Assembly: GCA_964529745.1 (NCBI GenBank)
Contig: CAZGZR010000001.1
Coordinates: 5,590 to 69,589 of the forward strand
Direction of reading: 5' to 3'
DNA from: an uncultured Candidatus Bathyarchaeia archaeon
GTDB lineage: Archaea > Thermoproteota > Bathyarchaeia > TCS64
DNA: 64,000 nucleotides
Part shown: positions 1 through 18,459 of the stretch, piece after piece
Numbering within the stretch: the first letter of the stretch is position 1
Layout: the number at the start of each line of letters is the position of its first letter
Notes under the pieces: model-generated
What the model was told of the DNA's origin: nothing
Database searches by the model: none
Seen by the model: only the letters and a program-made list of their open reading frames with translations
Position numbers and translations under genes: made by a program

Positions 1-203
1 CTGGTATCGACCTCGAGGAAGTGGTCGGGTCGCCTGATGCCGAGGTCCTTGAAGAATATCTCGTTGAGCTCGTAATCATAGTTTTGCCCGGTGTGCACAA
101 TCTTGTGGTCGAGGTGCCCGTCCAGCAAGGCCATGACCCGGCTCAGGCGTATTATCTCTGGTCGCGTACCGAGTATCGTAACTACCTTTAAACTGCTATT
201 CAC
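1..203 (-). CDS. UDP-N-acetylglucosamine 2-epimerase (CapG/FnlC/WbjD-like), N-terminal part; gene runs off the window start
   Basis: Minus-strand translation of 1-203 reads MNSSLKVVTILGTRPEIIRLSRVMALLDGHLDHKIVHTGQNYDYELNEIFFKDLGIRRPDHFLEV, a typical non-hydrolysing UDP-GlcNAc 2-epimerase N-terminus. GTG start overlaps the TGA of the upstream gene (GTGA). Self-derived coordinates. Confidence 0.6.
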   Translation of the reverse strand, partial: MNSSLKVVTILGTRPEIIRLSRVMALLDGHLDHKIVHTGQNYDYELNEIFFKDLGIRRPDHFLEVDT

Positions 204-1354
204 GGCGCGGCCTCCAAGATAATGGATCCATCCAACAACTTGGGCTCGTTCACCGGCTCGTAATACGTATCGGGGTCCTCAGGGTTATAGAGCTCACTTG
301 TCCAGAAGAGCATGAACAGCTCCTCTTCCCCGATATTGACTAGGTTATGGGTATGGAGCACCGGTATATCGATGTAGGCGGGGTTCTCCCCATCCAGAAC
401 ATAGTCTTGAACGGTTTCTGTTCCCACCCTTCTCAACTGGACAAGAGCTTGCCCCTTTACTATGCTGAACCTCTCCAGCTTCCTCCGGTGGTAATGGTTG
501 CCTCTTTCGACTCCTGGCTTCGTCGTAGAGAGGAAAGCTTGGCCCTTGTTGAGGGACCTTACAGCCTCGAATAGTCGCCCCCTGTGGTCCTTTTTCATGT
601 TGTGTAGGATCGGGTAGTGGCCTGGCTCGATGTAAGACCGGAAGGTGTTGAATAGATTGAGGTCGAAGGGGTCCGAGAGATCAGGAATGACTTTCTCCTC
701 CATGTACTGTTGCTTGAAGCCTTGGAGTTTGTCTAGTAGGTCGCTCACCTTTATCTCCAGGTTGGGCGGCACCACCATCTCGTCAGACTCCAGCTCATAC
801 ATTATTACCCGTTGGATCTTCTTGAGCACGTCGTCGATGTAAACGAGGCCCATGGTCTGGTCCTCCTTTATCTCTGGCTCCTGGCCATGGGTGAGCTGGT
901 GGCAGAACGTGGCGACCACCGAGTTATAAAAGGGGCTGCAGAAGGGCCCATAGACGTTAGGGATGATAAGACCGGTGAACTTGGCGTCGTTCTCGTGAGC
1001 CCATGCTGAAAATTTTCGTCTAGCGTGGAGCTTGGATCTGCCGTAAGCCGTGTCTCGGCTCTCGTGGATGGAGGAGGAATAGATCAGGTGGGGTGTGGAC
1101 CCTGTCCGTTTTAACGCCGACACGAGTATCTCGGCTAGCTGTACGTTAGTCTCATAGACTTCCTCGTCTGGCCCTCGGTTTGCTCCGGCTAGGTCGACGA
1201 CGGTGTCGCAGCGTTTGAGGTACTCGTCGAGTTCGTAGACATGCTCGAAGAATCTTCTCTGGTACGGGATAAGAGTCACATCTTTGTTGTTCTTCAGGTA
1301 GCTGTGTAGGTGTGATCCGATGAATCCCGACTGACCTGTTATCCCTACTCTCAC
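200..1354 (-). CDS. CapF/WbjC/FnlB-like bifunctional SDR reductase with C-terminal cupin domain (UDP-L-FucNAc pathway)
   Basis: 384 aa. N-terminal Rossmann motif GITGQSGFIGSHL. C-terminal half is cupin-like (HYHRRKLERFSIVKG...). Sits between CapE-like and epimerase genes. Confidence 0.7.
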   Translation of the reverse strand: MRVGITGQSGFIGSHLHSYLKNNKDVTLIPYQRRFFEHVYELDEYLKRCDTVVDLAGANRGPDEEVYETNVQLAEILVSALKRTGSTPHLIYSSSIHESRDTAYGRSKLHARRKFSAWAHENDAKFTGLIIPNVYGPFCSPFYNSVVATFCHQLTHGQEPEIKEDQTMGLVYIDDVLKKIQRVIMYELESDEMVVPPNLEIKVSDLLDKLQGFKQQYMEEKVIPDLSDPFDLNLFNTFRSYIEPGHYPILHNMKKDHRGRLFEAVRSLNKGQAFLSTTKPGVERGNHYHRRKLERFSIVKGQALVQLRRVGTETVQDYVLDGENPAYIDIPVLHTHNLVNIGEEELFMLFWTSELYNPEDPDTYYEPVNEPKLLDGSIILEAAP

Positions 1355-1364
1355 ACATTCACCT

Positions 1365-2444
1365 CTACACTGGCTGGGTTATGACCGGTAGTTGTTCAGA
1401 GGATGACGGCGGCTCGCCTCCCAGGTGCTCCTGCACCTCTCTGCATGACAGCAAGAGGGCTATCGTCTCGTCGAGGGTGAGCCTCCGTGTGTTGCTGGAC
1501 GTGTATCCATCGGCGGGGAGTTCCTCGTACTTCCCGGAGGAGAAAAACTCCTCGTAGTCGAGCCTCCTCAAGTTCCTTATCCTGTAGAACTCTTCGTTGC
1601 TCTCGGCCTTCATGAGCTCCTCTCGGGTCACCAACGTCTCGTGCATCTTCTCGCCCTCTCTGACGCCGATTGTCTTGACGCCCCTGTTGTGGTTGAAGAT
1701 GATGGTCATGGCCTCCGCTAGGGTGCCTATGGTGGCGGCTGGGCTTTTCTTCACCAGCAGGTCTCCGTTCTCACCGTACTCTATGGCGTAGAGTACCAGA
1801 TCGAGGGCCGTGTCAAGGGGAAGAAGGAACCGGGTCATGTCGGGGTTGGTGACTGTGAGCTGAGTGCCTTTTAATATCTGGCTTATGAAGAGGGGAAGCA
1901 CCGAGCCCCTGCTGAACATGACGTTGCCGTACCTGACGCCGCTGTAGACAGTGCCGCCGTTGAGCCTCGCCTTGGCAGTCATGAGCTTCTCCATGAGGGC
2001 CTTGGTCATGCCCATGGCGTTTATAGGGTAGACTGCCTTGTCGGTGCTCAGTATTATGACCTTCTCGGTGCCTGCGTCCTCGGCGGCGTCCAGAACATTA
2101 CTGGAGCCCTGGATGTTGGTCTTGACGGCCTCCATGGGGAAGAACTCGCATGTGGGAACCTGCTTCAGTGCCGCTGCGTGGAACACTATGTCCACACCCC
2201 TCATCACCCGTTTCACGGAGTCTCTGTCGCGTACGTCTCCTATGATGAACTTGACCCTGTCCGTGTTCAGGCGTCTGCGTAGGTCGTACTGTTTCTTCTC
2301 GTCCCGGCTGAAGACGATGATGTCTTTAGGGTGGTAATCTCTCAGGACTCGCTGGACCATGTTGCTGCCGAAAGAGCCGGTGCCCCCAGTGACCAATATG
2401 GTCTTTTCTTCGAGTAAGTCGTCTCTGGTCCTGTATGAATGCAA
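1365..2444 (-). CDS. UDP-N-acetylglucosamine 4,6-dehydratase / 5-epimerase (CapE/WbjB/FnlA/PseB family)
   Basis: 359 aa. Carries TGGTGSFGS and the polysaccharide biosynthesis CapD-type extended SDR signature. Confidence 0.8.
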   Translation of the reverse strand: MHSYRTRDDLLEEKTILVTGGTGSFGSNMVQRVLRDYHPKDIIVFSRDEKKQYDLRRRLNTDRVKFIIGDVRDRDSVKRVMRGVDIVFHAAALKQVPTCEFFPMEAVKTNIQGSSNVLDAAEDAGTEKVIILSTDKAVYPINAMGMTKALMEKLMTAKARLNGGTVYSGVRYGNVMFSRGSVLPLFISQILKGTQLTVTNPDMTRFLLPLDTALDLVLYAIEYGENGDLLVKKSPAATIGTLAEAMTIIFNHNRGVKTIGVREGEKMHETLVTREELMKAESNEEFYRIRNLRRLDYEEFFSSGKYEELPADGYTSSNTRRLTLDETIALLLSCREVQEHLGGEPPSSSEQLPVITQPV

Positions 2445-2808
2445 CTTGGTTGCCCCTATCTGTCTAGGGGTTTCGTGGAACAGTATTCCATATTAGATTG
2501 TATGTGTAGTCAAGCTAGACAACCATCACCTGTTGGTCTGTGAGGCTTCGTCGTAGTTCTTCTTGAGACGCTGTGCCTCCATTGAGATCGATGAAGTACT
2601 CGCCTTCGTCGGCGAGTACTAAGATGGGCTGCTTTTCATTGCTTTTTGGTAGTGGTCTGGGACGTATGAAAAATATCCGTAAAAAGCGTCCAAGGAACGA
2701 TTACTTTTCCCTATTACGTTTGATCTGGGTGATCATTATGCCTTATTCTATAGTTGTATTCGTTATCACTAACAAGTTCTTTTAACCTTTTTTCAACGAA
2801 GCCTAGGC

Positions 2809-4065
2809 ATGCCATACATGGAAACTGATACTGTTTACGATGGCCTAGAGAGATGCAGCCGATGCCTCTTACCAGACAGCTTTCCCGGTATCAGTTTCGA
2901 CGAGGACGGCGTGTGCAACTACTGCCACGATCAGCCACCATTCGAGGAGCTCGGCGAGGAAGCCTTCACCGAGCTGTTGGACCAATACCGGGGCAAGGGC
3001 GACGAGTATGATTGCATTGCCCCGATCAGCGGAGGCAGGGATAGCGCATACGTTTTGCACCAGCTGGTGACCAGGTACGACATGCGGGTGCTGGCGCTAA
3101 CGGTTGACAGTGGGTTCATAACGGATGAGGCTAACAGGAATATAGAGCAGGTTACTGGCAAGCTGAGCGTCGACCACGTCTGGCTAAGAGATGAAGCCCA
3201 GATAAGCGCGGCCAGGCGGAACGCGGAGATAAAGTTCAATGGGTGGCTCAAGGCCCCCTCCATTCACAACATCGTGCCTGTGCTCAACAGCGGCGACAAG
3301 CTCATGAACCTACGGATGTTCAGATACGCTTCGGAACACGGCATCCCCCTTCTACTGGGCGGGAACGTCGTGGGGACAAGCACTTACGAGCACGGCAACG
3401 CTCGGACGGGGTACCTCGGGGTTTTCCCGGACGACCACGGGGTATACTCCCTAGCCGACAAGCTGAGACTCATACTGTATTATGGTTGGGACTTCCTGGC
3501 TAACACGTACAACTGGCAACCCTCCATATTCAAGGAGTACCTCACAGGGGCGGCTGTCTACTTCTTCGACCGAGTCTTCAAGCCAAGCAGCGTGGACCTG
3601 GTGGGGTTCTACGACTATGTTCCCTGGAACGAGGAGAAGATCGTGTCAACGATAACAGGAGAGCTGGGTTGGAGGGGGGCAGACGACACCACGACCACGT
3701 GGCGTATAGACGACTCGGCCTACGCCGTCATCAATTACCTCTACTTCTACCTCGCCGGCATCGACGAGCACGTGGAGCTGTACAGCAAGATGATCAGGGC
3801 AGGCCAGATAACTAGGGAGGAGGCGTACCGTCGATGCCACACCGACTCCCGGCCCAGGATACCCAGCTTAGAGAAAGAGTTCAAGAACCTCGGGGTCACG
3901 GAGATAGAGGTCCATTGCGCACTTGATGAATACCGTCCCGCGTTCATTAGAAAACACCTGAAAGGAACAAGTTTCGAGAGATGCATGTCCTCATACTCGC
4001 CCAGTACTATCCACCAGACCTCGGTGGAAGCAGCACCAGAGCCTATAACGTCGCCCGCGGACTAA
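2809..4065 (+). CDS. N-acetyl sugar amidotransferase (WbuX family, PP-loop ATP pyrophosphatase)
   Basis: 418 aa. N-terminal Cys-x2-Cys...Cys-x2-Cys zinc ribbon. PP-loop SGGRDS. WbuX-family members convert 2-acetamido sugars to acetamidino sugars. 3' end overlaps the next gene by 85 nt in another frame. Confidence 0.65.
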   Translation: MPYMETDTVYDGLERCSRCLLPDSFPGISFDEDGVCNYCHDQPPFEELGEEAFTELLDQYRGKGDEYDCIAPISGGRDSAYVLHQLVTRYDMRVLALTVDSGFITDEANRNIEQVTGKLSVDHVWLRDEAQISAARRNAEIKFNGWLKAPSIHNIVPVLNSGDKLMNLRMFRYASEHGIPLLLGGNVVGTSTYEHGNARTGYLGVFPDDHGVYSLADKLRLILYYGWDFLANTYNWQPSIFKEYLTGAAVYFFDRVFKPSSVDLVGFYDYVPWNEEKIVSTITGELGWRGADDTTTTWRIDDSAYAVINYLYFYLAGIDEHVELYSKMIRAGQITREEAYRRCHTDSRPRIPSLEKEFKNLGVTEIEVHCALDEYRPAFIRKHLKGTSFERCMSSYSPSTIHQTSVEAAPEPITSPAD

Positions 4066-5189
4066 CGCGGAACGGCGTTAAGGCCACCGTGGTCGCTGCA
4101 TTCCCCCACTACCCCCACGGCGTAGTGCCGATGGAGTATCGGTGGAAGCCTTACCGCCGCGAACAGGTGGACGGCGTCGAAGTCATCAGGACCTTCATGC
4201 TACCCATTGAGTCCAAGGGGCTGCTGTACCGGGTCTTCACCTTCGTGACATTCATCCTCAGCAGCCTCATAGGGCTGCTGCTGGTAAAGGACGTGGACGT
4301 AGTCTGGGCCGCCAACCCAGACATCTTCGCCCTGATCCCAGGAACGCTGTATAAGCGGGTGTACCGCTGCCCACTCATCTTCAACGTTGACGACCTTAGC
4401 ATGGAGGACGTGAACAACCTTGGAATAATGGGGAGCGGAACAGTCGCTTACAGGTTAGCGAAAATACTCTCCACAGCTCTTTACAAAGGGATAGATGCCG
4501 TGACTCCCATTAGCCCCGGGTATTTCAACAGCATAGCTAGGTTCGGCGTACCGCGGGACAAGATGTATTTTATCAGAAGCGGAGTAGATCTCGAAGTCTT
4601 TAAGCAGGAAGAGAGAGGGCTAGGAAACAAGTTTACTGTGGCTTATAGTGGCTCCTTCTCTGTCGCATACGACTTCAATCAAATAATCCGGGCGGCTGAG
4701 CTTCTCAAGGACCAAGGAGTCGAGTTCTGGATTCAGGGGAAAGGTGAACAAGGTCTAGGGATAAGAGAAGCTATCCACGAGAGCAGGCTCTCAAACGTAA
4801 TGCTTTTTGACACAATTCTGACGAGGAAGCAGGTCGCGGAGTTCTTGGGAGAAGCCGACTCGTTGATCCTCCCCTTAAAGGATTTCAATGCACCTTATCC
4901 TGGGATCTCATCCAAACTTTACGAGTATCAAGCGCTTGGTAAACCAATCATCTGCTGCTCCGAGGGCCAGTCAGCTGAATATGTTGAGGAGACACGTTCC
5001 GGCGTCGTCGTGAAGCCAGGTGACCACGAAGCTCTGAAAGAGGCCGTGCTTTTTCTCCGTGATAACCCAGAAGAGGCCTCAAAACAAGGTATGTCTGGCA
5101 GAAGATACGTTGAGGAAAACGTGGGTTTTGTACAAATTGGAGTACAGATGATTGAGGTAGTCAACCAAGTAGTTTCTGGAGGAGTGTAG
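3981..5189 (+). CDS. GT4 family glycosyltransferase
   Basis: 402 aa. N-terminus MHVLILAQYYPPDLGGSS and C-terminal E-x7-E region typical of GT-B / GT4. Confidence 0.75.
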   Translation: MHVLILAQYYPPDLGGSSTRAYNVARGLTRNGVKATVVAAFPHYPHGVVPMEYRWKPYRREQVDGVEVIRTFMLPIESKGLLYRVFTFVTFILSSLIGLLLVKDVDVVWAANPDIFALIPGTLYKRVYRCPLIFNVDDLSMEDVNNLGIMGSGTVAYRLAKILSTALYKGIDAVTPISPGYFNSIARFGVPRDKMYFIRSGVDLEVFKQEERGLGNKFTVAYSGSFSVAYDFNQIIRAAELLKDQGVEFWIQGKGEQGLGIREAIHESRLSNVMLFDTILTRKQVAEFLGEADSLILPLKDFNAPYPGISSKLYEYQALGKPIICCSEGQSAEYVEETRSGVVVKPGDHEALKEAVLFLRDNPEEASKQGMSGRRYVEENVGFVQIGVQMIEVVNQVVSGGV

Positions 5190-5190
5190 C

Positions 5191-6345
5191 GTGAAAATCC
5201 TTCAGATCTGCGACAGAATGGATCCTAACTCCTCGGAAGGAAGAAGAGTAATAACTATCTCAAACGAGCTGTCAAAAAGAGGGTATGACGTTACAGTCGC
5301 TTCAGCCATACGAGCCCAGAAAGAGAAACAGAGAGTCGAATCCTGTTTAGAACACGGCGTAGACATTATCTGGCATAAACCGGCGTTCGGATTCAGTAAC
5401 TTCTCATACTCACCAAGCCTCTACCAGAATATATGTGAGAGAGAGTTTGATTTAATCCACGCACACAGTTACAGGCATTACGGGACTTATATAGGAGCCG
5501 TTCTCGGGAAAAAGAATAAAATCCCTTACATTATGAGTCCATACGGTTCCGTAGGCTATGAATCCACTAGATCCCTTAAACCCCTCTATTGGATGCAAGA
5601 CCTCGTCACCAGAAAACTACCGTTAAAACAGGCGGAAAAAATCCTCGCTAACACAAACTATGAAAAAAACCAGATAATCCGAATAGGCGTCGAGGAGAGT
5701 AAAATCGATGTCGTATACCGTGAGGTAAATACCAGCCTATTTACGAACCGGTGCAACAACTCGTATGATCCAAAAACCGTTCTTTTCGTCGGGCGAATAA
5801 CACCAATTAAAGGCATTGAACTCGTTATCAATGCTCTCAATCTTCTAGACAAAGAAATAACTCTAAAAATAATAGGTCAAGTTGAGAACTACGATTATTT
5901 TAAACGCCTTGAAAACTTGGTTAGACATTACAATCTTCAAGATAGAGTAAACTTCCTCGGTTCAGTGACGCATGAAGAACTCCCTGAACACTATTCCTCT
6001 GCCTTAACCTTGGTTCTTTCTTCCCTTTACGAGAATCTGGGAGGAGTCCTCTTAGAAGCACAAGCGTGCGCCTGCCCCGTTATAACCACTGCAACCGGAG
6101 GCACGGCAGAAGTCCTGGAGAATGGGAAAACCGGGTTCTTGTTGTCTTCGAGATCGCCAAAAGAAATTTCTGAAGCGATCAATCTATTGGCCAATGATCT
6201 ATCGCTAAGAGATCGAATGGGGGTAGAGGCCAGAAGGTTCGTAGAATCAAAGTTCTCAGTTGAACAATACATCGATAGAATCATTTGCTCATATGGAAGC
6301 GCGTTAACTCCATCTATCCACAAGAAAGAGTGTGTTTCTTCATGA
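5191..6345 (+). CDS. GT4 family glycosyltransferase
   Basis: 384 aa. Contains LLEAQACACPVITTATGGTAEVLENGKTGFL, a GT4 donor-binding motif. Starts 2 nt after the previous stop. Confidence 0.75.
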   Translation: MKILQICDRMDPNSSEGRRVITISNELSKRGYDVTVASAIRAQKEKQRVESCLEHGVDIIWHKPAFGFSNFSYSPSLYQNICEREFDLIHAHSYRHYGTYIGAVLGKKNKIPYIMSPYGSVGYESTRSLKPLYWMQDLVTRKLPLKQAEKILANTNYEKNQIIRIGVEESKIDVVYREVNTSLFTNRCNNSYDPKTVLFVGRITPIKGIELVINALNLLDKEITLKIIGQVENYDYFKRLENLVRHYNLQDRVNFLGSVTHEELPEHYSSALTLVLSSLYENLGGVLLEAQACACPVITTATGGTAEVLENGKTGFLLSSRSPKEISEAINLLANDLSLRDRMGVEARRFVESKFSVEQYIDRIICSYGSALTPSIHKKECVSS

Positions 6346-7403
6346 ATATCCTATTGTTGACTTTCAAGACAGATCGGGGAAACGCTTTAGCAGATGCATT
6401 GAATAAGATCGGGTATAATGTATCGGTTGATGAAATAGGTAAGAAAAAGTTATCGATAATCAGGAACCTATACCGCGTGGTATTCTCATATTTTAAGCAT
6501 CATGGGAAATATGATTTGGTAATTACCGAATGTTTTGACTATAACGGTATGCTTGCATTATTATTATCATTTTTTGAGGACACTCCCTACATTATATATG
6601 TGAAAGGGTTTTCACCCGATGATGCTAAAGAGAAATCAGGCAAGTTAACAAGGTTTCTTGATGAGAAATTAAACCATATGATATTTTCAAAAGCAAGTGC
6701 CATTGCATATATTAGTAATCACCTGAAACAGAAATACGAAGAGCATTTCGCAAAAAAACAAAAAGACGAATATTTAAGCGTACCATCAAAGGTAATACAT
6801 CATTCCATAGACGAATCATATTTTAAAAATGAGAAACGTAAAAGATCAGGAAACAGAGTGCTTTATGTTGGTAATCTTGATTTTAAAGGGAAAGCCGATG
6901 GGGCTGTTTTCCTATTAAATATGATGAAAAGCCGCGATGAAACTGAAAGTTATTATCTTTCTATAGTTGGCGGAGGCTCATATTTACCATTTATACAAAG
7001 TTTAGCCAAGGAATATGGACTAAGAAACGTGAAATTTCACGGCTATATAACTAAAAAGGAACTTCAAGCACTTTATAGAGACTCTTCTTTGTTTGTATAT
7101 CCATCTTTTCAAGATGCTTTTCCCACAGTAGTTATGGAGGCCCAGGCGATGGGGCTTCCAGCCATAGTTACTGATACATCAGGCGCAAAAGAGGTTATAA
7201 TCGATGGAAAAACAGGCTACGTGGTTGAAGCTGAGCCAGATGTATTTCATCATGCTTTATTCAAGCTCATTGAAAATGATGAGTTACTAAAATCCATGTC
7301 TGAAGCCTCAAAAACACATATAAAAAAGAATTTAACATGGGAAAAATCGGCTGAAAAATTTCATGAACTAATTACATCTTGCATTATGGAATCTAGGAGA
7401 TGA
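6342..7403 (+). CDS. GT4 family glycosyltransferase (AT-rich)
   Basis: Start taken at the ATG of MNILLLTF, which overlaps the upstream TGA (ATGA). Contains VMEAQAMGLPAIVTDTSGAKEVIIDGKTGYVV, a GT4 motif. GC drops sharply here. Confidence 0.7.
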   Translation: MNILLLTFKTDRGNALADALNKIGYNVSVDEIGKKKLSIIRNLYRVVFSYFKHHGKYDLVITECFDYNGMLALLLSFFEDTPYIIYVKGFSPDDAKEKSGKLTRFLDEKLNHMIFSKASAIAYISNHLKQKYEEHFAKKQKDEYLSVPSKVIHHSIDESYFKNEKRKRSGNRVLYVGNLDFKGKADGAVFLLNMMKSRDETESYYLSIVGGGSYLPFIQSLAKEYGLRNVKFHGYITKKELQALYRDSSLFVYPSFQDAFPTVVMEAQAMGLPAIVTDTSGAKEVIIDGKTGYVVEAEPDVFHHALFKLIENDELLKSMSEASKTHIKKNLTWEKSAEKFHELITSCIMESRR

Positions 7404-7407
7404 TGAT

Positions 7408-8091
7408 TTGAGATCACCTTTTTTCATTCTCTTTGATTCCCTATACAGAGAAAATGTATATGTTTTTGATTTTATTCAATTTATTACAAGACAACAATAT
7501 TACAACCCAACGGCAGATCTCTGTATCGATGGCTTTCCTCGTTCTGCCAATTCATTTGCCGTAAATTTAGTCCATACCGCTTGTCCAGATTTAAAAATAA
7601 ATCACCATCTGCATTCACCAGTAATAATTAAGAAAGCAGTTCGTGATGAGATCCCCATCTTTATACTTATTAGGAATCCTGAGGATGCGGTTACATCCGA
7701 GTACATCCGTTTAAAATATTCTGAAGAGAAAAACCCCGATGTTAAGTGGTTAATTAATAGATACGTTAAGTATTATAGTATCGTAAAAGTTTACGTTGAG
7801 GACATTTTTATTGTAACTTTTGAAAAAGTCACTCAAACTCCTGTTGAATACCTGAAACACGTTTTCTCAAAGTTGCGTCTTAATAATGAAAGGGATTATC
7901 TTGAAATTGTTGCTGAAACTAAGCTTATGGGAAAATCAAAAATTACGGAAGATATTATCTATACAACATCGATACCTACCAGAGAAAGAGATGACTATAA
8001 GAAGCATGTAAAAAGAAAAATTATGTCAAAACATGATTTTTCTCAAGCTAATCAAATATACCAAACGATTGCTGAACAGTTATCTCAATAA
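7408..8091 (+). CDS. sulfotransferase-like protein
   Basis: 227 aa. DGFPRSANSF resembles the PAPS 5'-phosphosulfate-binding loop. LIRNPEDAVTSEY matches the 3'-phosphate-binding R-x-P-x-D-x-x-V-S-x-Y motif. AT-rich. Confidence 0.5.
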   Translation: MRSPFFILFDSLYRENVYVFDFIQFITRQQYYNPTADLCIDGFPRSANSFAVNLVHTACPDLKINHHLHSPVIIKKAVRDEIPIFILIRNPEDAVTSEYIRLKYSEEKNPDVKWLINRYVKYYSIVKVYVEDIFIVTFEKVTQTPVEYLKHVFSKLRLNNERDYLEIVAETKLMGKSKITEDIIYTTSIPTRERDDYKKHVKRKIMSKHDFSQANQIYQTIAEQLSQ

Positions 8092-8207
8092 TGTTAGAGT
8101 GTGTGTATCTTTTTCCACTTATTTCATCTTATATTTACAAAATAAATTTTTAAATATACTAGGATAACATGTCGCGATATTTGACACACGTCTTTGAAGG
8201 TGATTAA

Positions 8208-8885
8208 ATGGGGTTCAAAGTTTTTTACGAACAAAAATATTCGACTAGGAGCGAAAAATTAAACCCCATGAAATTAAAGGCCTTGAGCTATTTCCCATCT
8301 CCACCAAGAAAGATTCTAGATGTAGGGTGTGGGTCAGGGCTCCTCACTCAGCTATTAACTGAGAGAGGCTATGATACAATCGGCATAGACATCTCTGAGA
8401 AAGCCATAGAAAAATGTAGGGAAAAAGGGCTATTGAGTTATCAACAAGATCTGAGTGAAGAACTTCTATTTGAGGATGAAACTTTCGATTGTATTTTAAT
8501 GAGCGAGGTAATTGAACATCTAGTGGATCCTTATTTTGCTCTTCATGAGATTCATAGAGTGCTTAAGAAAAAAGGGATTCTTATTATTACTACCCCAAAT
8601 TCGTCTTTCATTACTAGAAGACTTCGTTATGTATTGGGAAAAACAAGCACGGAAACCCAAAATTTTTCGCATCTACGTTTCTTTAATGTAAGACTACTCA
8701 CTAAAATATTGCATGAGGTAAATTACGATATTCTGGATCTTAAAGGATACTTATTCAATCCCTTCAACCTTAACACAGGGTTCACTTTAGATTTTTTAAA
8801 AAATCTTCTATCTGAAAATTTTATAGTAATAACACAAAAAAGGATAGAAGATAAACCGTACAAATATCCCTTAAATAATGTATGA
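8208..8885 (+). CDS. class I SAM-dependent methyltransferase
   Basis: 225 aa. Motif I ILDVGCGSGLLT, acidic residue after beta-2 (DIS), motif II FDCILMSEVIEH. Confidence 0.75.
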   Translation: MGFKVFYEQKYSTRSEKLNPMKLKALSYFPSPPRKILDVGCGSGLLTQLLTERGYDTIGIDISEKAIEKCREKGLLSYQQDLSEELLFEDETFDCILMSEVIEHLVDPYFALHEIHRVLKKKGILIITTPNSSFITRRLRYVLGKTSTETQNFSHLRFFNVRLLTKILHEVNYDILDLKGYLFNPFNLNTGFTLDFLKNLLSENFIVITQKRIEDKPYKYPLNNV

Positions 8886-8920
8886 TTGTATTCTTTTACA
8901 CTAATATTACTGACATAATA

Positions 8921-11860
8921 TTAATCAGTATTTTTTGGAATGCCTAGATATAATCCCTCTAAGTTGGCTTCATTTGACCAAACATAAAATAAATCAGAGA
9001 AATTTTGATTATCCCCAAAATGAACTGATTCAATACTATAATTTTCACCTGGATAATTTGAGTAATTAAATTTCCTAAAAATTCCGATGTTGGGAGTATC
9101 ATTGTTAAAATATATAGATCCAGTTTTCCATGTTTTCTTTAATGTTTTTTCCTCTGAATACAGTCTACATGAGTAATATAGACCATCTTTAAGTTTTTTA
9201 ATGTCTTTGACTAATATTTTAACGATGTTAAGATATTTATATGATTCATCAAATATATCCCAATTTATTTTTTCTTTATTTCCCCATTCTAAACCATTTG
9301 AAGTATTTACGCGAATTATATTATATGATGATTTGCACTCATTAACCATTGTTTCTGTATATATTAAATTAATTCCATTGTTTTGTATCCAGGCTATAGG
9401 AGAATCAGCTGACCAGTATAAACAAGATGTATTTGGTGTAATTATTTCTGTGATATTTGTCCAGTCATCGCCTTCTTTGCTACTCATAGAAATTATAGAA
9501 TTGTCTTTTAATGACTTGCAAAAGAGTATCAAATCATTATCTCTATTTATTACGTAGGGATCATCATAAAGACCTAGAATAATGGGATCTGTAGCTTTAG
9601 TCCAATTTAATCCATTGCTTGAATAAGCGTATCCAAGCCCAATGTGTCTATCGTCGTCTCCTTTGATGGAGTAATAAAACCTATAATGTGGAGAACTTTT
9701 ATTTATGAAAACTAAATTACTAGGATTTATTATCTGTTTTCCATCTGAATCAATTAAGTTAGACATTAGAGATTCTTTTTCCAAGGTAATATTTTCAGCG
9801 TAAATAATGTCGTTTCTATTATAAGGTAGGGAGATACTAAAAACGAGTAAAGAACCATAAATTATTTTTTTACAATACCTATTTAGATAATCTCTAGTCG
9901 GCGATATTTCTCTTTCACTATAGAACCAATCATCTGTAATGCAGTAATGGATTTTATTTATCTCATTCCTAGAATCGGGGACATTTTTTAATAAATCATA
10001 AGGCGTTTTGTTATAGGATTCTAGCATCCATTTCTTTTCGTCTAAAGTATTTATCATCATATTTCTAGGAGCATCTATAAATTCAAAAATATGTGATGTC
10101 CCAATGGGAAAAATAATCTCATTAGATTCTACAGTTTTAATAAATTGTCCAGCGTCTTCTATGTTTGATGAAGAATATGAGCTAGAATATCTGTTATCTC
10201 CTCCTATTCGATTAATTCCAGCATTTATCTGTGGAGCTAATAATAATATTATAAATAAAATTCTTCCATATTCCTTCCATTGCTCTTTCCGAAATTTACC
10301 TAAAACAAGTCCGCTTCCATTTAAAATAAAAATCTCTTTAATAAAAAATGAAGCAAAATAGGTGGCAATCAATGATATGTAAATTATCAGTCTATTAAGA
10401 GGAACTTGGCACCCAATTATTGAGGCAAGAAGGACTGCGGTTATGAATGTCATCAAATATAACACTATACGATTCGTTTCAGTGAAAGCTTTATACGCGA
10501 TACCTAAAAGGCCTGTAAATAAAATTAACCGATTGAACATATGCCATTTTATATAATCAAATTTAGGATTTACACTGAATAAAGAAGGTTTGATAATGGA
10601 TAAAATAAAAATCGTAATTGATAATGTAATAAAAATAGTTGCTAAATAATTATAATTTATATTCATTCGTAGGAGCATACTCCTATTTATTAATATGTAT
10701 ATACCTAAAAATAGAATAAAAATAACTATAACATAAATATACAAGTTTTGGCTTTCTAAAAAAAATAAATTTTTTATAGGATAAATAAAAAATCCATAAA
10801 ACGGTAGTATAAATAAAGACATAACAATTAGCGAAGCGGCGATGTTTTTAATTTTGTAATATCTTTTTTCAATATAATAATTTCCTATTTCTAATGCAAT
10901 TACTGTGAGGTTTATCGCTATGGGCAGCATATGGGAGGTTAAAGAGGATGCCAAAAATAAACCATTTACAAAAATATATGTGTATTTATATTTAAAGTCA
11001 TTTTTCTTTTCTAAAACTATTAAAAGTAGAAAACTTGATAACATTAATATTATTGAAAAGTTTTCCCTAAGCAACATCGCGAATCTTAACCCTGTCCAAG
11101 GATTCATGAGGACGAGGGTTCCTGTTAAAACACCAACCAAAGTCCCGGCTATTCGTTTAAATATGAGATAACTCAAAACGCAGAATAATCCAACAAAGGC
11201 TATTGGTCCGTACCGCATGATTTCTTGACTTTTAAAGCCTGTATATTTTGAAACCATCGTTACAAAATATGGGAACCCAAAGTTCCATAACGATAGATAA
11301 GCTCTAAACTGTTCCACTGATTCGTATGGAGATAAATCAAGTGTCACTAGTCTTCTGGATATTGTGGCTGTTTCCCAAGTGTCCCATCCTAACCAATATT
11401 CTCCAGGGGTTTGACGTGCCACGAAGTATCCTCCTGCAAGAAAAGGGATGAAAGCTGCTAACCAGCTTATTATGAAAGATTTTATCTCGATTTTGTAGTA
11501 AAATCGTGTTTCATAAAATTGGTAAAATAGAAACTCGCAGAAGATCAAGAAGAATGATGTCTGTAATAGAAGAAATCTTGTAACTTGATCAAAAAGAAGG
11601 GTGAGTAATATATATGTCCAGAGTAACAGAAGGGTACTCAACACAACATTTATGATTATAAACTCATCAAAGTTAAGATCCAATTCATTTTTTAAGATTG
11701 CACTTAGGTAGAAGCCGGGGATTATTATGAGAAAAAGAAGAGAGAAAAACTTGTAACTCATAGTATTTAGGTTAATAACCGATGAATAAATCCAGAAAAA
11801 AAATGATGCAAGTAAGGGCATATAATTAATTTTTTTATTAAATAGCCCTTGGTAATTCAT
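8921..11860 (-). CDS. large polytopic membrane protein (GT-C-like N-terminal domain, about 13 or more TM) fused to a C-terminal Asp-box/BNR-type beta-propeller; function unknown
   Basis: 979 aa, AT-rich. N-terminal approx. 500 aa are strongly hydrophobic, with a conserved acidic loop LKNELDLNFDEF and YWLGWDTWE. C-terminal approx. 400 aa contain repeated S-x-N-G-L-x-W blades (YSSNGLNW, NTSNGLEW). Paralog of 12878-15829. Confidence 0.6.
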   Translation of the reverse strand: MNYQGLFNKKINYMPLLASFFFWIYSSVINLNTMSYKFFSLLFLIIIPGFYLSAILKNELDLNFDEFIIINVVLSTLLLLWTYILLTLLFDQVTRFLLLQTSFFLIFCEFLFYQFYETRFYYKIEIKSFIISWLAAFIPFLAGGYFVARQTPGEYWLGWDTWETATISRRLVTLDLSPYESVEQFRAYLSLWNFGFPYFVTMVSKYTGFKSQEIMRYGPIAFVGLFCVLSYLIFKRIAGTLVGVLTGTLVLMNPWTGLRFAMLLRENFSIILMLSSFLLLIVLEKKNDFKYKYTYIFVNGLFLASSLTSHMLPIAINLTVIALEIGNYYIEKRYYKIKNIAASLIVMSLFILPFYGFFIYPIKNLFFLESQNLYIYVIVIFILFLGIYILINRSMLLRMNINYNYLATIFITLSITIFILSIIKPSLFSVNPKFDYIKWHMFNRLILFTGLLGIAYKAFTETNRIVLYLMTFITAVLLASIIGCQVPLNRLIIYISLIATYFASFFIKEIFILNGSGLVLGKFRKEQWKEYGRILFIILLLAPQINAGINRIGGDNRYSSSYSSSNIEDAGQFIKTVESNEIIFPIGTSHIFEFIDAPRNMMINTLDEKKWMLESYNKTPYDLLKNVPDSRNEINKIHYCITDDWFYSEREISPTRDYLNRYCKKIIYGSLLVFSISLPYNRNDIIYAENITLEKESLMSNLIDSDGKQIINPSNLVFINKSSPHYRFYYSIKGDDDRHIGLGYAYSSNGLNWTKATDPIILGLYDDPYVINRDNDLILFCKSLKDNSIISMSSKEGDDWTNITEIITPNTSCLYWSADSPIAWIQNNGINLIYTETMVNECKSSYNIIRVNTSNGLEWGNKEKINWDIFDESYKYLNIVKILVKDIKKLKDGLYYSCRLYSEEKTLKKTWKTGSIYFNNDTPNIGIFRKFNYSNYPGENYSIESVHFGDNQNFSDLFYVWSNEANLEGLYLGIPKNTD

Positions 11861-11995
11861 ACTTTACTAGCTAAGTTTTGAGGGATATTTATCAGATGTT
11901 GAGTAAAAAAATAATACATACCATTCCGGTTGATTTGTAACCGTTGTTCTCAAGTCTACTTCATGAATCCTTTCATGAACATATAACTTAAATGA

Positions 11996-12679
11996 TCATT
12001 TAACGGCTTTAGCCATAATATGGTAATAATAGGGAAATACGCCTAAAATGTGTTTTTCGGGGAACATCTTAACAAATTCAATCCCCGCCTCCTCAAGGAA
12101 TTTTTTCATTTCATTCACCGAGAAATATCTTCTATATGCATATACATCCTCTCCATCACCCGTTTTCCCAGCTGTCTTAATGTAATGTTCTTTTCTACCC
12201 AACATTTCTAGTATCTTTATGGGAATCTCTGAGAAGCATTGAGTTGTAGTAAGAGCAACAAACCCACCGGGCTTTACCACTCGCCCCATCTCGGAAATAA
12301 TTTCTTTGATAACTTCCTCATTTTTTATATGAATGATTACTTGCTCAGCAAAAGCTACATCGCAGGAATTGTCGGGCAATGAGAGGTCCTGGCCTAGCTC
12401 GTTTAAAAGGTCTACTCTGGAATCTTTTACCATGAAATGGTGATATAATTCACTTGGTTCGACAGCATAGTATTTGGATACACCATATTCCTCTAATATG
12501 GCTCGTGCTATTCTTCCTACTCCAGCACCTACATCCAGAACAACATCTCCGTCTTTTATAGGAAGTATTTTAGCGATATCTCGTGCATACGCTCTGCTTT
12601 TCTCTGACATCAATATCTTTGCGTAATCATCAGCAATGCTATCGTGCATCTCCACGCTGTCAAGTAATTTCATATCCAA
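11996..12679 (-). CDS. class I SAM-dependent methyltransferase
   Basis: 227 aa. Motif I VLDVGAGVGRIA, then VEPSEL, then post-II PGGFV. Confidence 0.7.
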   Translation of the reverse strand: MDMKLLDSVEMHDSIADDYAKILMSEKSRAYARDIAKILPIKDGDVVLDVGAGVGRIARAILEEYGVSKYYAVEPSELYHHFMVKDSRVDLLNELGQDLSLPDNSCDVAFAEQVIIHIKNEEVIKEIISEMGRVVKPGGFVALTTTQCFSEIPIKILEMLGRKEHYIKTAGKTGDGEDVYAYRRYFSVNEMKKFLEEAGIEFVKMFPEKHILGVFPYYYHIMAKAVK

Positions 12680-12877
12680 CTAGATGGAGTTTGATTTTAA
12701 GAGTTAAATAATCATGTAGGTACAATCTAAAACACTCAATGATTAACCCTCAATATGGTCGAAAAAATCCGTCTCCACTATCAAAGAGATCTAATAACTG
12801 GTGATATAATATCCAGGTAACTACAGTCTACAAATATTTGTATTCGCTGGTGTTGTGGTGTAATCTCCATTCACTTA

Positions 12878-15829: not shown

Positions 15830-15928
15830 TTTTCAGTACTAAAATAATCGATTAAAGATAAAGGCAATCATTCAGCGTCTTTGTGTGAATACAACCGCAT
15901 CATTTACGTCATCAAATTTAAAATATTA

Positions 15929-16159
15929 TTATATTATGATTTTTCCTCTTTCAAATTGCTTATTGTACCATATCTTTCCACGGGATCTTCTGCTGATCTT
16001 CTTTGGATTCCCTAAGACCGCGAATTGCTTTACCATGCTGAGGGCACGGATTATTATATAACTCGTTACAGATAACACCATCTTTATAGTAGTATTTACT
16101 ATCCTGTGAGAATATACAAAGTCATCAGCTCCAAGTATTTCTCGGATATTGTATGCCAT
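15929..16159 (-). CDS. hypothetical small ORF at the island boundary (may be non-coding)
   Basis: 76-aa ORF in an AT-rich intergenic stretch. No recognisable motif. Confidence 0.15.
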   Translation of the reverse strand: MAYNIREILGADDFVYSHRIVNTTIKMVLSVTSYIIIRALSMVKQFAVLGNPKKISRRSRGKIWYNKQFERGKIII

Positions 16160-17096: not shown

Positions 17097-17172
17097 TGGT
17101 GGAGAGAGGAGGAGTCGAACCTCCACGCATACGCCAATCAAGGCGCCGTTCTCCCAGTTAAACTATCTCTCC
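17097..17172 (-). tRNA. tRNA gene with encoded CCA; anticodon loop reads UUGAUU (probably GAU, Ile) but the anticodon arm is non-canonical
   Basis: Minus strand reads GGAGAGAUAGUUUAACUGGGAGAACGGCGCCUUGAUUGGCGUAUGCGUGGAGGUUCGACUCCUCCUCUCUCCACCA. It has a 7-bp acceptor stem, a D-arm with GG, a T-arm GGAGG/UUCGACU/CCUCC, a 5-nt variable loop, and discriminator A plus CCA. The anticodon stem GCGCC/GGCGU closes only 6 nt. Confidence 0.75.
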
Positions 17173-17336: not shown

Positions 17337-18176
17337 TTAGGTGTCTCCCATGTCTTTCCCCTCCGTGGCTTCCTCCAGGTCTCTGAGCCGTTTCCTGAGG
17401 GAGACCTCGGAGACGCCGGCCGCAGCCGCGATTTCCCACTGTCTGCACTTCTCGTTCTTGGCTTTGCACGCCATGTAGAGGGCTGCAGCGGCCGAGGCTC
17501 GAGGGTCCTTGCCCGCCAGAGCCTTCTGCTCAGCGGCCTCCCGGAGTATCTCCACCGCTAGCAGATCGGTCTCCATGCTGGCGCCCACCTCTGAGGCCAG
17601 CCTCGGCACGAGCTTCATGGGATCGTCCACGGGCATGCGTAGATCCAGCTCCGTTACAAGGAGCCTGTACATCCTCGCAACCTCCTTGACGTCCTCACCG
17701 CTCTTCTCGGAGACTTCGTGGAGGGTTCTCGGAAGACCGGCCTCGCGGCAGGCGGCGTAGACAGAGGCCGCGGCGAAGCCTGCTATAGTCCCCCTCACGA
17801 TGAGGTTTCTTTCATGAGCCATCCTGAAGATGGCCTGGGCTCTCCTCCTTTGGTTTCTGGCGAGATGCAGCTCGTCAACGAGCCTGTCCATCTCCGCTAC
17901 TGCCTGCCTTATGGTCCTTGGATCCAAGTCCTCAAGCTTGGCAAGCTCGTCGTATCTCTGCAGCCTTTTCATCCGGCGCATGGTTTCGGGGGGCACCCGT
18001 TTCCTCTCTGTTCTCGTTTCAGGCGGGTAGTCCTCGGGTGAGGGCCCTAGCTCCAAGGGTTCCTCCCGTATCACGGTGCCGCAGCTGGCACAGATCACCT
18101 CGCCGGTCTCTGGGTCGTAGATCAGGTCAGAGCCGCTGCATCGGGGGCACGAGTCCTCGATGGTTTTATTGTCCAT
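17337..18176 (-). CDS. tfb: transcription initiation factor IIB (TFB)
   Basis: Start set at MDNKTIEDSCPRCSGSDLIYDPETGEVICASCG (zinc ribbon C-x2-C...C-x2-C), followed by two cyclin-like repeats. The ORF stays open 61 codons further upstream, but these lack TFB features. Confidence 0.85.
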   Translation of the reverse strand: MDNKTIEDSCPRCSGSDLIYDPETGEVICASCGTVIREEPLELGPSPEDYPPETRTERKRVPPETMRRMKRLQRYDELAKLEDLDPRTIRQAVAEMDRLVDELHLARNQRRRAQAIFRMAHERNLIVRGTIAGFAAASVYAACREAGLPRTLHEVSEKSGEDVKEVARMYRLLVTELDLRMPVDDPMKLVPRLASEVGASMETDLLAVEILREAAEQKALAGKDPRASAAAALYMACKAKNEKCRQWEIAAAAGVSEVSLRKRLRDLEEATEGKDMGDT

Positions 18177-18459
18177 GGTTGATGCTCCTGGCTGAGAGCA
18201 GTATTCTAAGAGAATGTTTGAGTCGTGTGTATTAAGGTACGAGGCGGGGCATGGGCGGACAGGGTTAATGTCAGCTTTCTTGGGACGGGTGGCGGGTGTA
18301 TGATGGTTTGGGACTGGGTTCACATCGCGACCAATACGGGATGTCGGCTCAAGGATCATCGTTGGGGTTTGAGATAGTCGTGAGCTCGGGGTTTTGGATC
18401 ATGTATATCACTGGCTTCTACTTGAAGGTGGTTGCCTTCTATCAGTAACCAGAGTCTTA

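Follow-up and report, generated by a model that had tools for sequence, protein, structure and literature searches.

A probable bathyarchaeal surface-glycan locus with UDP-L-FucNAc genes and a divergent NASAT-like amidotransferase, a candidate acetamidino-sugar pathway

The closest described gene set is that for L-FucNAm in E. coli O118/O151 (and O145), which runs in the order NASAT (WbuX)-HisH-AglZ/HisF2-fnlA-wbjC(fnlB)-wecB(fnlC)-WbuB-type GT4-WbuC (locus L010, NZ_CP027472.1). The UDP-L-FucNAm route in E. coli is itself a proposed route (PMC7685785). In the archaeon Methanococcus maripaludis, deletion of MMP1081, a WbpG homologue, links this gene to the acetamidino group at position 3 of ManNAc3NAmA, a sugar of the archaellin N-glycan (PMC2952790), and the paper on the Legionella pneumophila NASAT (PDB 8WEX) aligns the protein with canonical NASATs. 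The original prediction for the locus described here held that an acetamidino pathway would be unusual in an archaeon; MMP1081, a NASAT-family protein encoded in a glycan locus and tied to an acetamidino sugar, is an archaeal precedent (PMC2952790). However, MMP1081 acts on a 2,3-diamino-mannuronic acid, unlike the substrate considered below.

We analysed a 64-kb stretch of DNA (the window), whose proteins have their closest homologues in Bathyarchaeota/Bathyarchaeia MAGs. Its left end is best explained as part of a bathyarchaeal surface-glycan locus with two divergent operons, and contains the following features:

1-203 (coding positions 3-203), minus strand: first 67 codons of a gene for a non-hydrolysing UDP-HexNAc 2-epimerase of the FnlC/CapG/WecB type (TIGR00236, PF02350)
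200-1354, minus strand: FnlB/CapF/WbjC-type UDP-2-acetamido-2,6-dideoxy-L-arabino-hex-4-ulose reductase, 384 aa, complete (NF047837)
1365-2444, minus strand: FnlA/CapE-type UDP-GlcNAc 4,6-dehydratase/5-epimerase, 359 aa, complete (TIGR04130, PF02719, PF08485, PDB matches)
2445-2808, no strand: 364-bp divergent intergenic region separating the fnlABC and NASAT-like-GT4 operons (alignment of the window with L004 and L090)
2809-4065, plus strand: NASAT-like PP-loop ATP pyrophosphatase, 418 aa, transcribed divergently from the fnl genes, with zinc ribbon and PP-loop motifs
3981-5189, plus strand: GT4 glycosyltransferase of the WcaI/WbuB-like subgroup (NF007640 (PRK10307), E 4.9e-37, full length)
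5191-6345, plus strand: GT4 glycosyltransferase in the NASAT-like operon (PF00534/PF13692/PF13439)
6285-7403, plus strand: GT4 glycosyltransferase in the NASAT-like operon (PF00534/PF13692/PF13439)
7408-15829, no strand: remainder of the low-GC (30-40%) glycan island, including a 227-aa ORF (GC profile; Pfam, NCBIfam)
8208-8885, plus strand: class-I methyltransferase (Pfam/NCBIfam)
8921-11860, minus strand: polytopic membrane protein of ~980 aa with TM-like segments, paralogue of 12878-15829
11996-12679, minus strand: class-I methyltransferase (Pfam/NCBIfam)
12878-15829, plus strand: polytopic membrane protein of ~980 aa with TM-like segments, paralogue of 8921-11860

The minus-strand genes are predicted to encode the standard, ordinary three-enzyme route to UDP-L-FucNAc. 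In profile searches the FnlA-type protein scored 376.6 bits with the FnlA model TIGR04130 versus 314.5 for PseB, its second-best NCBIfam match, and Pfam searches gave 324 bits for PF02719 together with a C-terminal PF08485 domain. PDB matches were 4j2o (E 1.7e-103) and CapE 3vvb (E 1.7e-101), with FlaA1 2gn4 at 2.8e-65 (~345 bits for FnlA/CapE versus 224 for FlaA1). The MxxxK motif, with Met for Tyr, is present, and the segment STDKAVYPINAMGMTK aligns with STDKAAYPINAMGISK of CapE. The FnlB-type protein, an N-terminal SDR (PF01370) followed by a C-terminal cupin (PF14667), matched positions 1-369 of the 372 in NF047837 (E 1.3e-70, 238.2 bits) and S. aureus CapF (2zkl) from end to end (E 1.2e-65), with the YGxSK and cupin GNHxH...E / HTHN residues lining up. 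The 2-epimerase fragment begins WecB-like, VVTILGTRPEIIRLS (TIGR00236 E 1.4e-11; PF02350 31.7 bits), and its GTG start codon and the stop codon of the preceding fnlB-type gene overlap in the predicted GTGA at 200-203. The FnlA/B/C assignment made earlier holds, as do two complete co-oriented genes and the start of the third; because the window edge cuts the 2-epimerase after 67 codons, the window does not show the module to be "complete", as had been claimed. L003 carries a complete 380-aa gene whose start matches the fragment at 88% identity, and in L003/L021 and L091 the complete 380-aa epimerase has the same position and 4-nt overlap.

Compared with S. aureus CapE/CapF/CapG and P. aeruginosa WbjB/WbjC/WbjD (3vvb, 2zkl, 4j2o), the window proteins show full-length matches and equal domain architecture, and the CapE MxxxK, CapF SDR YxxxK and cupin metal ligands are all retained. 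The window set differs from these in that its proteins fall under the NCBI equivalog cut-offs and the third enzyme is a 67-aa fragment. For all four pathway proteins the family match is the best match yet lies under the curated cut-off (score/cut-off: FnlA 376.6/730, WbcJ-type reductase 238.2/500, WbuX 150.7/203.2, WecB fragment 44.2/210). The exact window proteins were absent from the public collections searched, in which the nearest was 88% identical. The window and E. coli O118/O151 have the three sugar-nucleotide enzymes in common, at identities of 51% (fnlA), 31% (wbjC) and 71% (wecB, over 59 aa), a PP-loop/zinc-ribbon amidotransferase homologue adjoins them, and a PRK10307-type GT4 is available for transfer; the E. 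coli GT4 after fnlC likewise has NF007640 (PRK10307) as its best model. By contrast, the window locus lacks HisH, HisF2 and WbuC, its genes are divergent rather than collinear, its host is archaeal, and its amidotransferase is just 26% identical, over the N-terminal half.

The sugar route is already known; the novelty sits in the amidotransferase variant. The NASAT-like protein contains an N-terminal four-cysteine zinc ribbon (C16, C19, C36, C39; CSRC...GVCNYC) and the PP-loop S74-GGRDS-79 (SGGRDS). These motifs bear out the homology to WbuX that had been predicted for this divergent gene, but not family membership in the curated sense, as the protein scored 150.7 bits with the WbuX model TIGR03573 (cut-off 203.2) versus 268.3 for the E. 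coli protein. By sequence, we place it as a WbuX homologue outside the curated family, in a distinct clade that stands apart from all characterised NASATs at 22% identity. It shares 21% identity with the Legionella NASAT, a sequence-level match limited to residues 28-130, and unlike 8WEX it carries clade-specific insertions, for example WLKAPSIHNIVPVLNSGDK, and other conserved residues in the C-terminal half. Clade-specific conserved residues include TTTWRIDD where canonical NASATs have an HHHES-type stretch, and the substrate or chemistry may therefore differ.

Among more distant relatives (31-36% identity), 46 of 58 are ~675-aa fusions in which a NASAT-like domain follows an N-terminal MCGIFG class-II glutaminase domain (GlmS/PurF/AsnB-like), and these fusions form the sister group of the NASAT-like clade. 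This layout is that of asparagine synthetase B, with an N-terminal class-II glutaminase and a C-terminal PP-loop synthetase (e.g. L087:1640-3667); unlike asparagine synthetase B, the window protein has no glutaminase domain and its synthetase domain is NASAT-like, not Asn_synthase. The fused glutaminase of the sister group supports ammonia-transfer chemistry for the clade. A fold search returned asparagine synthetase, carbapenam synthetase, nitrile synthetase, LarE and TtuA as PP-loop relatives. The NASAT-like protein itself sits in an unstudied sister clade that merits biochemical follow-up.

A tblastn search of the 64-kb window with E. coli HisH, HisF, HisH2 and HisF2 (E<=1e-2) found no HisH/HisF-like sequence, in agreement with the predicted lack of WbuY/WbuZ partners. 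HisH/HisF were likewise found beside the NASAT-like clade gene in 0 of 26 close-relative loci (within +-7-10 kb), and in each of the four loci that have them they adjoin a separate, canonical NASAT. The canonical NASATs of L054, L069 and L088 also lack adjacent HisH/HisF. Next to MMP1081 lie MMP1082 and MMP1083, the HisH/HisF-like AglY/AglZ.

The WcaI/WbuB-like GT4 gene begins 85 nt before the NASAT-like gene ends, an overlap common to L001, L003, L004 and L013, and in 13 close-relative loci a GT4 orthologue (>=45% identity) directly follows the NASAT-like gene. The downstream GT4 is a steadier partner of the NASAT-like gene (18/24 close-relative loci) than FnlABC, whose linkage recurs in a minority of ~8 of 84 loci, which weakens the predicted tie between amidotransferase and FnlABC. 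Loci where the clade adjoins FnlABC are the window, L004, L090, L003/L021 and L014, plus three bacterial ones from more distant relatives, L061, L074 and L082. L014 is a tight co-oriented fnlA-fnlB-fnlC-NASAT-like-WbuB-like GT4 cluster, which matches E. coli fnlABC-wbuB in order except that the amidotransferase stands between sugar synthesis and transfer. Elsewhere the NASAT-like gene adjoins generic GalE/TviC-like SDR pairs (L007, L011, L019, L022) or, in L001 (77% identical to the window's protein), aminotransferase, formyltransferase and acetyltransferase genes.

Our best single guess for the locus product, held tentatively, is L-FucNAm; that product was named in the original prediction and is still inferred, as are every catalytic step, the ammonia source and the stage of amidination (nucleotide sugar or after transfer). 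FnlA, FnlB and FnlC would convert UDP-GlcNAc to UDP-L-FucNAc in three steps: 4,6-dehydration with C5 (and C3) epimerisation by FnlA/CapE; C3 epimerisation by the cupin and C4 reduction by the SDR of FnlB/CapF, giving UDP-6-deoxy-L-TalNAc; and C2 epimerisation by FnlC/CapG. The NASAT-like enzyme would most likely adenylate the 2-acetamido carbonyl oxygen of the sugar (ATP to AMP + PPi), with AMP then displaced by ammonia to yield L-FucNAm or a closely related 2-acetamidino sugar. Because L-FucNAc is a 6-deoxy sugar without a carboxylate, the acetamido group would, from PP-loop chemistry, be its only adenylatable carbonyl. With no glutaminase fused to it or encoded beside it, the enzyme probably takes free ammonia, like NH3-dependent NAD synthetase, in place of the HisH/HisF2 ammonia-channelling pair of canonical WbuX/WbpG enzymes. 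A lipid-linked acceptor would receive the sugar from the overlapping GT4, and the two further GT4s would lengthen the glycan. Gene identities, motifs, fold, synteny and missing partner genes are observed; the original observation is largely real and partly confirmed, and its interpretation is partly supported.

Counting against L-FucNAm are the sub-cut-off WbuX score, separate clade and clade-specific conserved residues of the enzyme, as well as the position of most clade members away from FnlABC, and L091, where fnlABC (80% identity) occurs with the amidotransferase missing. A somewhat unlikely alternative is that the acetamidino group is made on another N-acetyl sugar, or on a lipid-linked oligosaccharide after transfer, with FnlABC supplying plain L-FucNAc (or L-PneNAc) and its adjacency reflecting modular glycan-island shuffling. 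The constant GT4 beside a varying upstream sugar module, L091 and the mosaic GC profile favour this, while the recurrence of FnlABC adjacency in archaeal and bacterial clade members, including the compact L014 operon, and profile searches that found no second N-acetyl-sugar pathway in the window's first 16 kb argue against it. Less probable is a use of the PP-loop fold for different chemistry with no acetamidino sugar made, such as uronic-acid carboxylate amidation, nitrile or thio-derivative formation or another amine ligation; the clade's distance from characterised NASATs and its own conserved residues, the range of fold-search relatives, and UDP-sugar 6-dehydrogenases near some members (L001, L009) point that way.

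It is more doubtful still that this is a canonical WbuX-type system with HisH/HisF2-like partners encoded at another genomic site or recruited from histidine biosynthesis. The visible sequence is 64 kb of the genome and some canonical NASATs also lack adjacent partners; however, the 26 close-relative loci contain none within 7-10 kb, HisH/HisF where present go with a separate canonical NASAT, and the sister group's ammonia supply is a fused class-II glutaminase. A pseudaminic/legionaminic acid or dTDP-sugar pathway, for which the second-best PseB match could be cited, is effectively refuted: the FnlA model scores higher, MxxxK, the C-terminal latch domain and a CapF-type cupin reductase partner are present, and no aminotransferase or PseC/PseH/PseI/NeuB-type gene lies nearby.

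In the alignment of the window with L004 and L090, the 2445-2808 region shows two fully conserved blocks, with invariant runs adjoining each start codon around a variable or deleted middle, and presumably houses promoters and 5' leaders. The synteny of the two further GT4s (5191-7403) is kept in L004 and L090. The window also carries the archaeal markers TFIIB/TFB (17337-18359), a proteasome assembly chaperone and HdrA2/HdrB.

Three genes on the minus strand and one divergent gene account for the first 4,065 nucleotides of the window. FnlABC denotes the CapE/CapF/CapG-type UDP-L-FucNAc genes, and NASAT an N-acetyl sugar amidotransferase of the WbuX/WbpG type.

1365-2444, minus strand, FnlA-type ORF of 359 aa (ORF calling)
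200-1354, minus strand, FnlB-type ORF of 384 aa (ORF calling)
GTG start at 203, minus strand, running off the window edge, FnlC-type fragment of 67 codons (VNSSLKVVTILGTRPEIIRLS...)
2809-4065, opposite strand, across a 364-bp spacer, NASAT-like ORF of 418 aa

The third ORF starts with a GTG at 203 that shares bases with the TGA stop codon of the second ORF (GTGA). The ORFs, this overlap and the motifs of the original prediction were seen again in the sequence, and its gene layout is real; its description of the FnlABC module as complete is unjustified from the window, because only a 67-codon fragment of the third gene lies inside. A full 380-aa Epimerase_2 gene occupies the third-gene position, likewise with a 4-nt overlap, in L003/L021 and L091 (L001-L091 are loci with homologues of window genes, fetched from other genomes). 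The L003/L021 (Bathyarchaeota) proteins share 73% (FnlA) and 62% (FnlB) identity with those of the window, and the L091 FnlB shares 80%. Across the divergent junction, L004 and L090 keep the gene order of the window. Within the intergenic region (2445-2808), two blocks, ~2468-2512 by fnlA and ~2748-2800 by the NASAT-like gene, are 100% identical in the window, L004 and L090; the stretch between them varies or, in L090, is deleted. The conservation of these blocks exceeds that of the flanking coding sequences (84-92% amino acid identity), suggesting that they are candidate promoter or leader elements. A TTTTAA box lies ~30 nt upstream of the ATG at 2809.

The FnlA-type protein matches the Polysacc_synt_2 extended-SDR family (PF02719, 324 bits over residues 16-290), with a GxxGxxG motif in TGGTGSFG (residues 19-26), and has a C-terminal PF08485 domain. 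Its best NCBIfam model is TIGR04130 (FnlA), at 376.6 bits against a cut-off of 730, with PseB second (314.5 bits). Its matches to Acinetobacter FnlA (4j2o, E 1.7e-103) and S. aureus CapE (E 1.7e-101) are much stronger than that to H. pylori FlaA1/PseB (E 2.8e-65), and in the PDB comparison FnlA scores 349.7 bits versus 224.1 for FlaA1. CapE has a methionine in place of the SDR catalytic tyrosine (MxxxK), and the PDB alignments set AMGMTK of the window protein against AMGISK of CapE and FnlA. The FnlB-type protein combines an SDR domain (PF01370, residues 5-184) with a cupin domain (PF14667, residues 255-364). Its residues 1-365 align to residues 1-366 of S. aureus CapF (E 1.2e-65) with YGxSK, GNHYH..E and HTHN conserved, and it covers positions 1-369 of the 372 in NF047837 (WbcJ/WbjC-type reductase), scoring 238.2 bits, below the curated equivalog cut-off of 500. 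The FnlB family counts >6,500 proteins at E ≤ 1e-20, and its bacterial members are ~50% identical. The FnlC fragment, of which only the 67 N-terminal residues are available for fold comparison with TIGR00236/PF02350, shares 71% identity over 59 residues with the FnlC-type epimerase encoded in an E. coli L-FucNAm-type cluster. All three scores fall under the NCBI equivalog cut-offs, which we attribute to divergence rather than to membership in another family.

The assignment of the three minus-strand genes to the FnlABC type, upheld by the profile and PDB matches, had been open to displacement by the Pse/Leg and dTDP-sugar families. Profile searches found no DegT or NeuB family member among the nine proteins of 1-8885 or the checked ORFs up to 16 kb, and the first 16 kb hold no aminotransferase, NeuB-type synthase or dTDP-sugar gene; thus neither family takes the place of FnlABC. 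We rejected a Pse/Leg pathway on this lack of DegT and NeuB families together with the MxxxK, not YxxxK, motif of the dehydratase, and a dTDP-sugar pathway on the FnlA best match, the CapF-type SDR-cupin partner and the lack of a dTDP-sugar gene. The FnlABC route is well established in bacteria; in this part of the locus the pathway is ordinary and the host unusual.

The divergent gene is less conventional. Its product carries a PP-loop, S74-G-G-R-D-S79, and a tetracysteine motif, C16-S-R-C19...G34-V-C36-N-Y-C39, both invariant in 48 relatives from the clade, by which we mean the window protein and its relatives without HisH/HisF partners. SGGxDS and CxxC-Xn-[GN]xCxxC are features of the NASAT family according to the paper describing 8WEX (PMC10607449). 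The protein has the overall NASAT fold, including the C-terminal helical part, and its AlphaFold model, built on the 48 relatives, is confident (pLDDT 87); the C-terminal tail is poorly conserved, with pLDDT <50 for residues 399-418. No Pfam match was obtained. The best NCBIfam match is TIGR03573 (WbuX; E 6.8e-44, whole profile), yet the score of 150.7 bits lies below the curated cut-off of 203.2, compared with 268.3 for the E. coli NASAT control, and BLASTP to the E. coli NASAT gives 26% identity over the N-terminal 190 residues only. In a small midpoint-rooted neighbour-joining tree without bootstrap, the eight canonical NASATs found in the fetched loci and 77 clade members split at the root rather than grouping together (mean between-group identity 22%). 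Clade-specific conserved residues and an insertion also set the clade apart from canonical NASATs. The proposal of a WbuX-family PP-loop amidotransferase therefore stands as to motifs and best profile, but not as to the cut-off or a place within the canonical group. Judged by these sequence criteria, the window gene is a member of an unannotated sister clade of NASAT.

The exact window FnlB-like and NASAT-like sequences were absent from public collections on exact look-up. A scan of one genome per species (185,579 species) returned 420 relatives, and 79 loci were fetched, their genes being called by a simple longest-ORF heuristic; the best matches were 75% identical at full length and 87% on a 1.5-kb fragment. 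Close relatives (47-87% identity) are stand-alone proteins of ~390 aa from Bathyarchaeia, Methanobacteriota, Thermoplasmatota, Nitrososphaerota, Woesearchaeota, Brockarchaeota, and Dehalococcoidales and other Chloroflexota. More distant relatives (31-36%) come mostly from Bacteroidota, Ignavibacteria and related bacteria.

Adjacent genes for HisH and AglZ/HisF2, the WbuY/WbuZ-type ammonia partners, are typical of the NASAT family though not universal. As originally predicted, such partners are absent here: tblastn with E. coli HisH, HisF, HisH2 and HisF2 detected none in the 64-kb window, nor in nine context loci of close homologues, and HisH/HisF are missing within 7-10 kb in all 26 close-relative loci. 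HisH/HisF were seen in four more distant loci (L047, L048, L063 and L081); in each, they adjoin not the clade member but a second protein, a canonical NASAT with 33-38% identity to the E. coli enzyme over ~350 aa. Each of these loci holds the canonical NASAT-HisH-HisF2 triad and a second-clade member within 10 kb, which argues that the two are functionally non-redundant.

How the clade might obtain ammonia is suggested by a ~675-aa fusion present in 46 of the 58 more distant loci (for example L087:1640-3667 and L005:5754-7865). The N-terminus of these proteins starts MCGIFG and matches the class-II (Ntn) glutaminase domains of GlmS, PurF and AsnB, and the C-terminus matches TIGR03573, likewise below the cut-off. 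The fusions thus share the layout of asparagine synthetase B, except that the synthetase domain is NASAT-like. This layout gives good, though indirect, support for ammonia transfer as the chemistry of the clade, with a supply that would be solved differently than in WbuX/WbpG. The fusions are common in Bacteroidota and Ignavibacteria glycan loci, where some are annotated as GlmS, and in L005 a stand-alone paralogue follows immediately downstream of the fusion. No glutaminase partner recurs consistently among the proteins of 560-800 aa encoded in the close-relative loci; L005 alone has the fused paralogue, and L009 encodes an AsnB-like protein. Given a stand-alone window form that lacks a glutaminase and has no consistent partner in these loci, direct use of ammonia by the window enzyme appears the simplest reading.

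The most constant neighbour of the close relatives is a GT4 glycosyltransferase gene: of the 24 close-relative loci having downstream sequence, 18 carry one immediately downstream and co-oriented, and 13 of the 18 are orthologues (at least 45% identity) of the window GT4 at 3981-5189. The 3' end of the NASAT-like gene overlaps the GT4 start by 85 nt (3981-4065) in the window, and the same overlap in L001, L003, L004 and L013 suggests that expression of the two genes is coupled. The GT4 N-terminus, MHVLILAQYYPPDLGG, is a canonical first strand and loop. Both the window GT4 and the E. coli GT4 that follows fnlC have PRK10307 (WcaI family) as their best NCBIfam model, at full length. We call the window enzyme WbuB-like because of this common model only, there being no direct BLAST link (E. 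coli WbuB gave no tblastn match in the window at E ≤ 1e-2).

A DNA search with the window fnlA found the E. coli 2014C-3050 O118/O151 cluster, from which the reference proteins for our comparisons were taken. Its order, the canonical arrangement behind the original prediction, is GT4, N-acetyl sugar amidotransferase, HisH, AglZ/HisF2, fnlA, wbjC, wecB, GT4 and WbuC, and HisH/HisF2/WbuX is a recognised annotation unit. By raw counts, adjacency of the clade to FnlABC is recurrent but confined to a minority of loci: the window, L004, L090, L003/L021 and L014 among close relatives, and L061, L074 and L082 among more distant bacterial loci; L027 has an FnlA-like protein at 40% identity. The most telling case is L014, with fnlA, fnlB, fnlC, the NASAT-like gene and GT4 co-oriented and tightly packed, an order that matches E. 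coli fnlABC-wbuB except that the amidotransferase gene stands between the synthesis genes and the transferase gene. L-FucNAc is a 6-deoxy sugar with no carboxylate, and its acetamido carbonyl would therefore be the sole group activatable by known PP-loop chemistry. The best-supported mechanism, to which we give nearly an even chance, is that FnlA, FnlB and FnlC turn UDP-GlcNAc into UDP-L-FucNAc, whose acetamido oxygen the NASAT-like enzyme would adenylate; ammonia would then displace AMP to yield an acetamidine, and the WbuB-like GT4 would transfer the sugar.

Other neighbourhoods bear on the choice of substrate. The clade member of L001 is flanked by aminotransferase, formyltransferase, acetyltransferase and deacetylase genes. 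L007, L011, L019 and L022 have, where FnlABC would be, two generic SDRs, sometimes with a 2-epimerase, and these SDR pairs give only generic NCBIfam matches at the RfbB/GalE/TviC/LegB level; L091 has fnlABC and no amidotransferase. Set beside the L014 order, these loci leave the same chemistry on another sugar, or at a lipid-linked stage, as an unlikely though appreciable alternative. A different PP-loop chemistry is improbable. That partner genes lie elsewhere in the genome, of which 64 kb is visible, we consider very unlikely alongside the partner-free close-relative loci. We tentatively propose, at somewhat less than an even chance, that the clade comprises widespread acetamido-activating PP-loop enzymes without a HisH/HisF2 channel. 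The archaeal stand-alone form would act on free ammonia and the bacterial sister through its fused class-II glutaminase, a new amidotransferase architecture; with its dedicated WbuB-like GT4, the enzyme would form a portable two-gene module that equips archaeal surface glycans with a positively charged, L-FucNAm-like acetamidino 6-deoxy-L-hexosamine.

Acetamidino sugars give surface glycans positive charge and in bacteria shape serotype and phage and immune recognition, yet their biosynthesis is poorly understood. The literature searched yielded no demonstrated in vitro reaction for any NASAT, and the E. coli UDP-L-FucNAm pathway is proposed only (PMC7685785). The original view that an acetamidino-sugar pathway is unusual in an archaeon holds for the host of FnlABC but not for acetamidino sugars as such, since M. 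maripaludis MMP1081, a WbpG homologue, has been tied by deletion to an acetamidino sugar (PMC2952790). We found neither a report of an L-FucNAm-like acetamidino 6-deoxy-L-hexosamine in archaea nor publications on the clade in the open-access literature. What is new here is a NASAT sister clade whose partners differ from the canonical ones (they are absent, or replaced by a fused class-II glutaminase) and whose pairing with a WbuB-like GT4 is conserved. If the proposal is true, enzymes that dispense with HisH/HisF2, or bring their own glutaminase, would offer a simpler system for the chemistry and represent a second evolutionary solution to ammonia delivery, and the known surface-sugar repertoire of uncultured Bathyarchaeia would widen. 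Clade proteins are now annotated as hypothetical proteins or, wrongly, as GlmS, and their recognition would better annotate several hundred genomes.

The window also encodes TFIIB/TFB (17337-18359), a proteasome assembly chaperone and HdrA2/HdrB-like proteins, and the nearest homologues of the amidotransferase-like protein and the reductase are from Bathyarchaeota/Bathyarchaeia MAGs; the host is accordingly archaeal and probably belongs to the Bathyarchaeia. GC content falls from ~54% to 30-40% over the distal glycosyltransferase, methyltransferase and membrane-protein genes (6000-16000) and is 55-62% past 16 kb. The glycan locus is thus a mosaic in composition, the GC of its fnlABC/NASAT-like part resembling that of the backbone. 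A tRNA gene (17100-17172, minus strand; Rfam 51.6 bits) with an encoded 3' CCA sits where the glycan island of low GC (30-40%, ~6-16 kb) meets the backbone (55-60% GC). Its anticodon arm, GCGCC-UUGAUU-GGCGU, has a 6-nt loop, and ARAGORN reports "tRNA-??? (ga)"; the gene may mark the island integration site or be a degenerate copy. Within the island, 8921-11860 (minus strand) and 12878-15829 (plus strand) encode paralogues of ~980 aa, 25% identical over 929 aa, neither of which has a Pfam match. In each, 9-12 hydrophobic segments occupy the first ~550 residues and a large C-terminal domain follows. Similar pairs recur in the bathyarchaeal loci L001, L003, L004 and L012, and candidate roles are those of GT-C-type transferases or polymerases, or of surface proteins. 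Just past the TFB gene, 18974-21337 (plus strand) encodes a 787-aa protein with DUF5117 and DUF4953 (Met-zincin), a secreted metalloprotease architecture better known from Bacteroidota.
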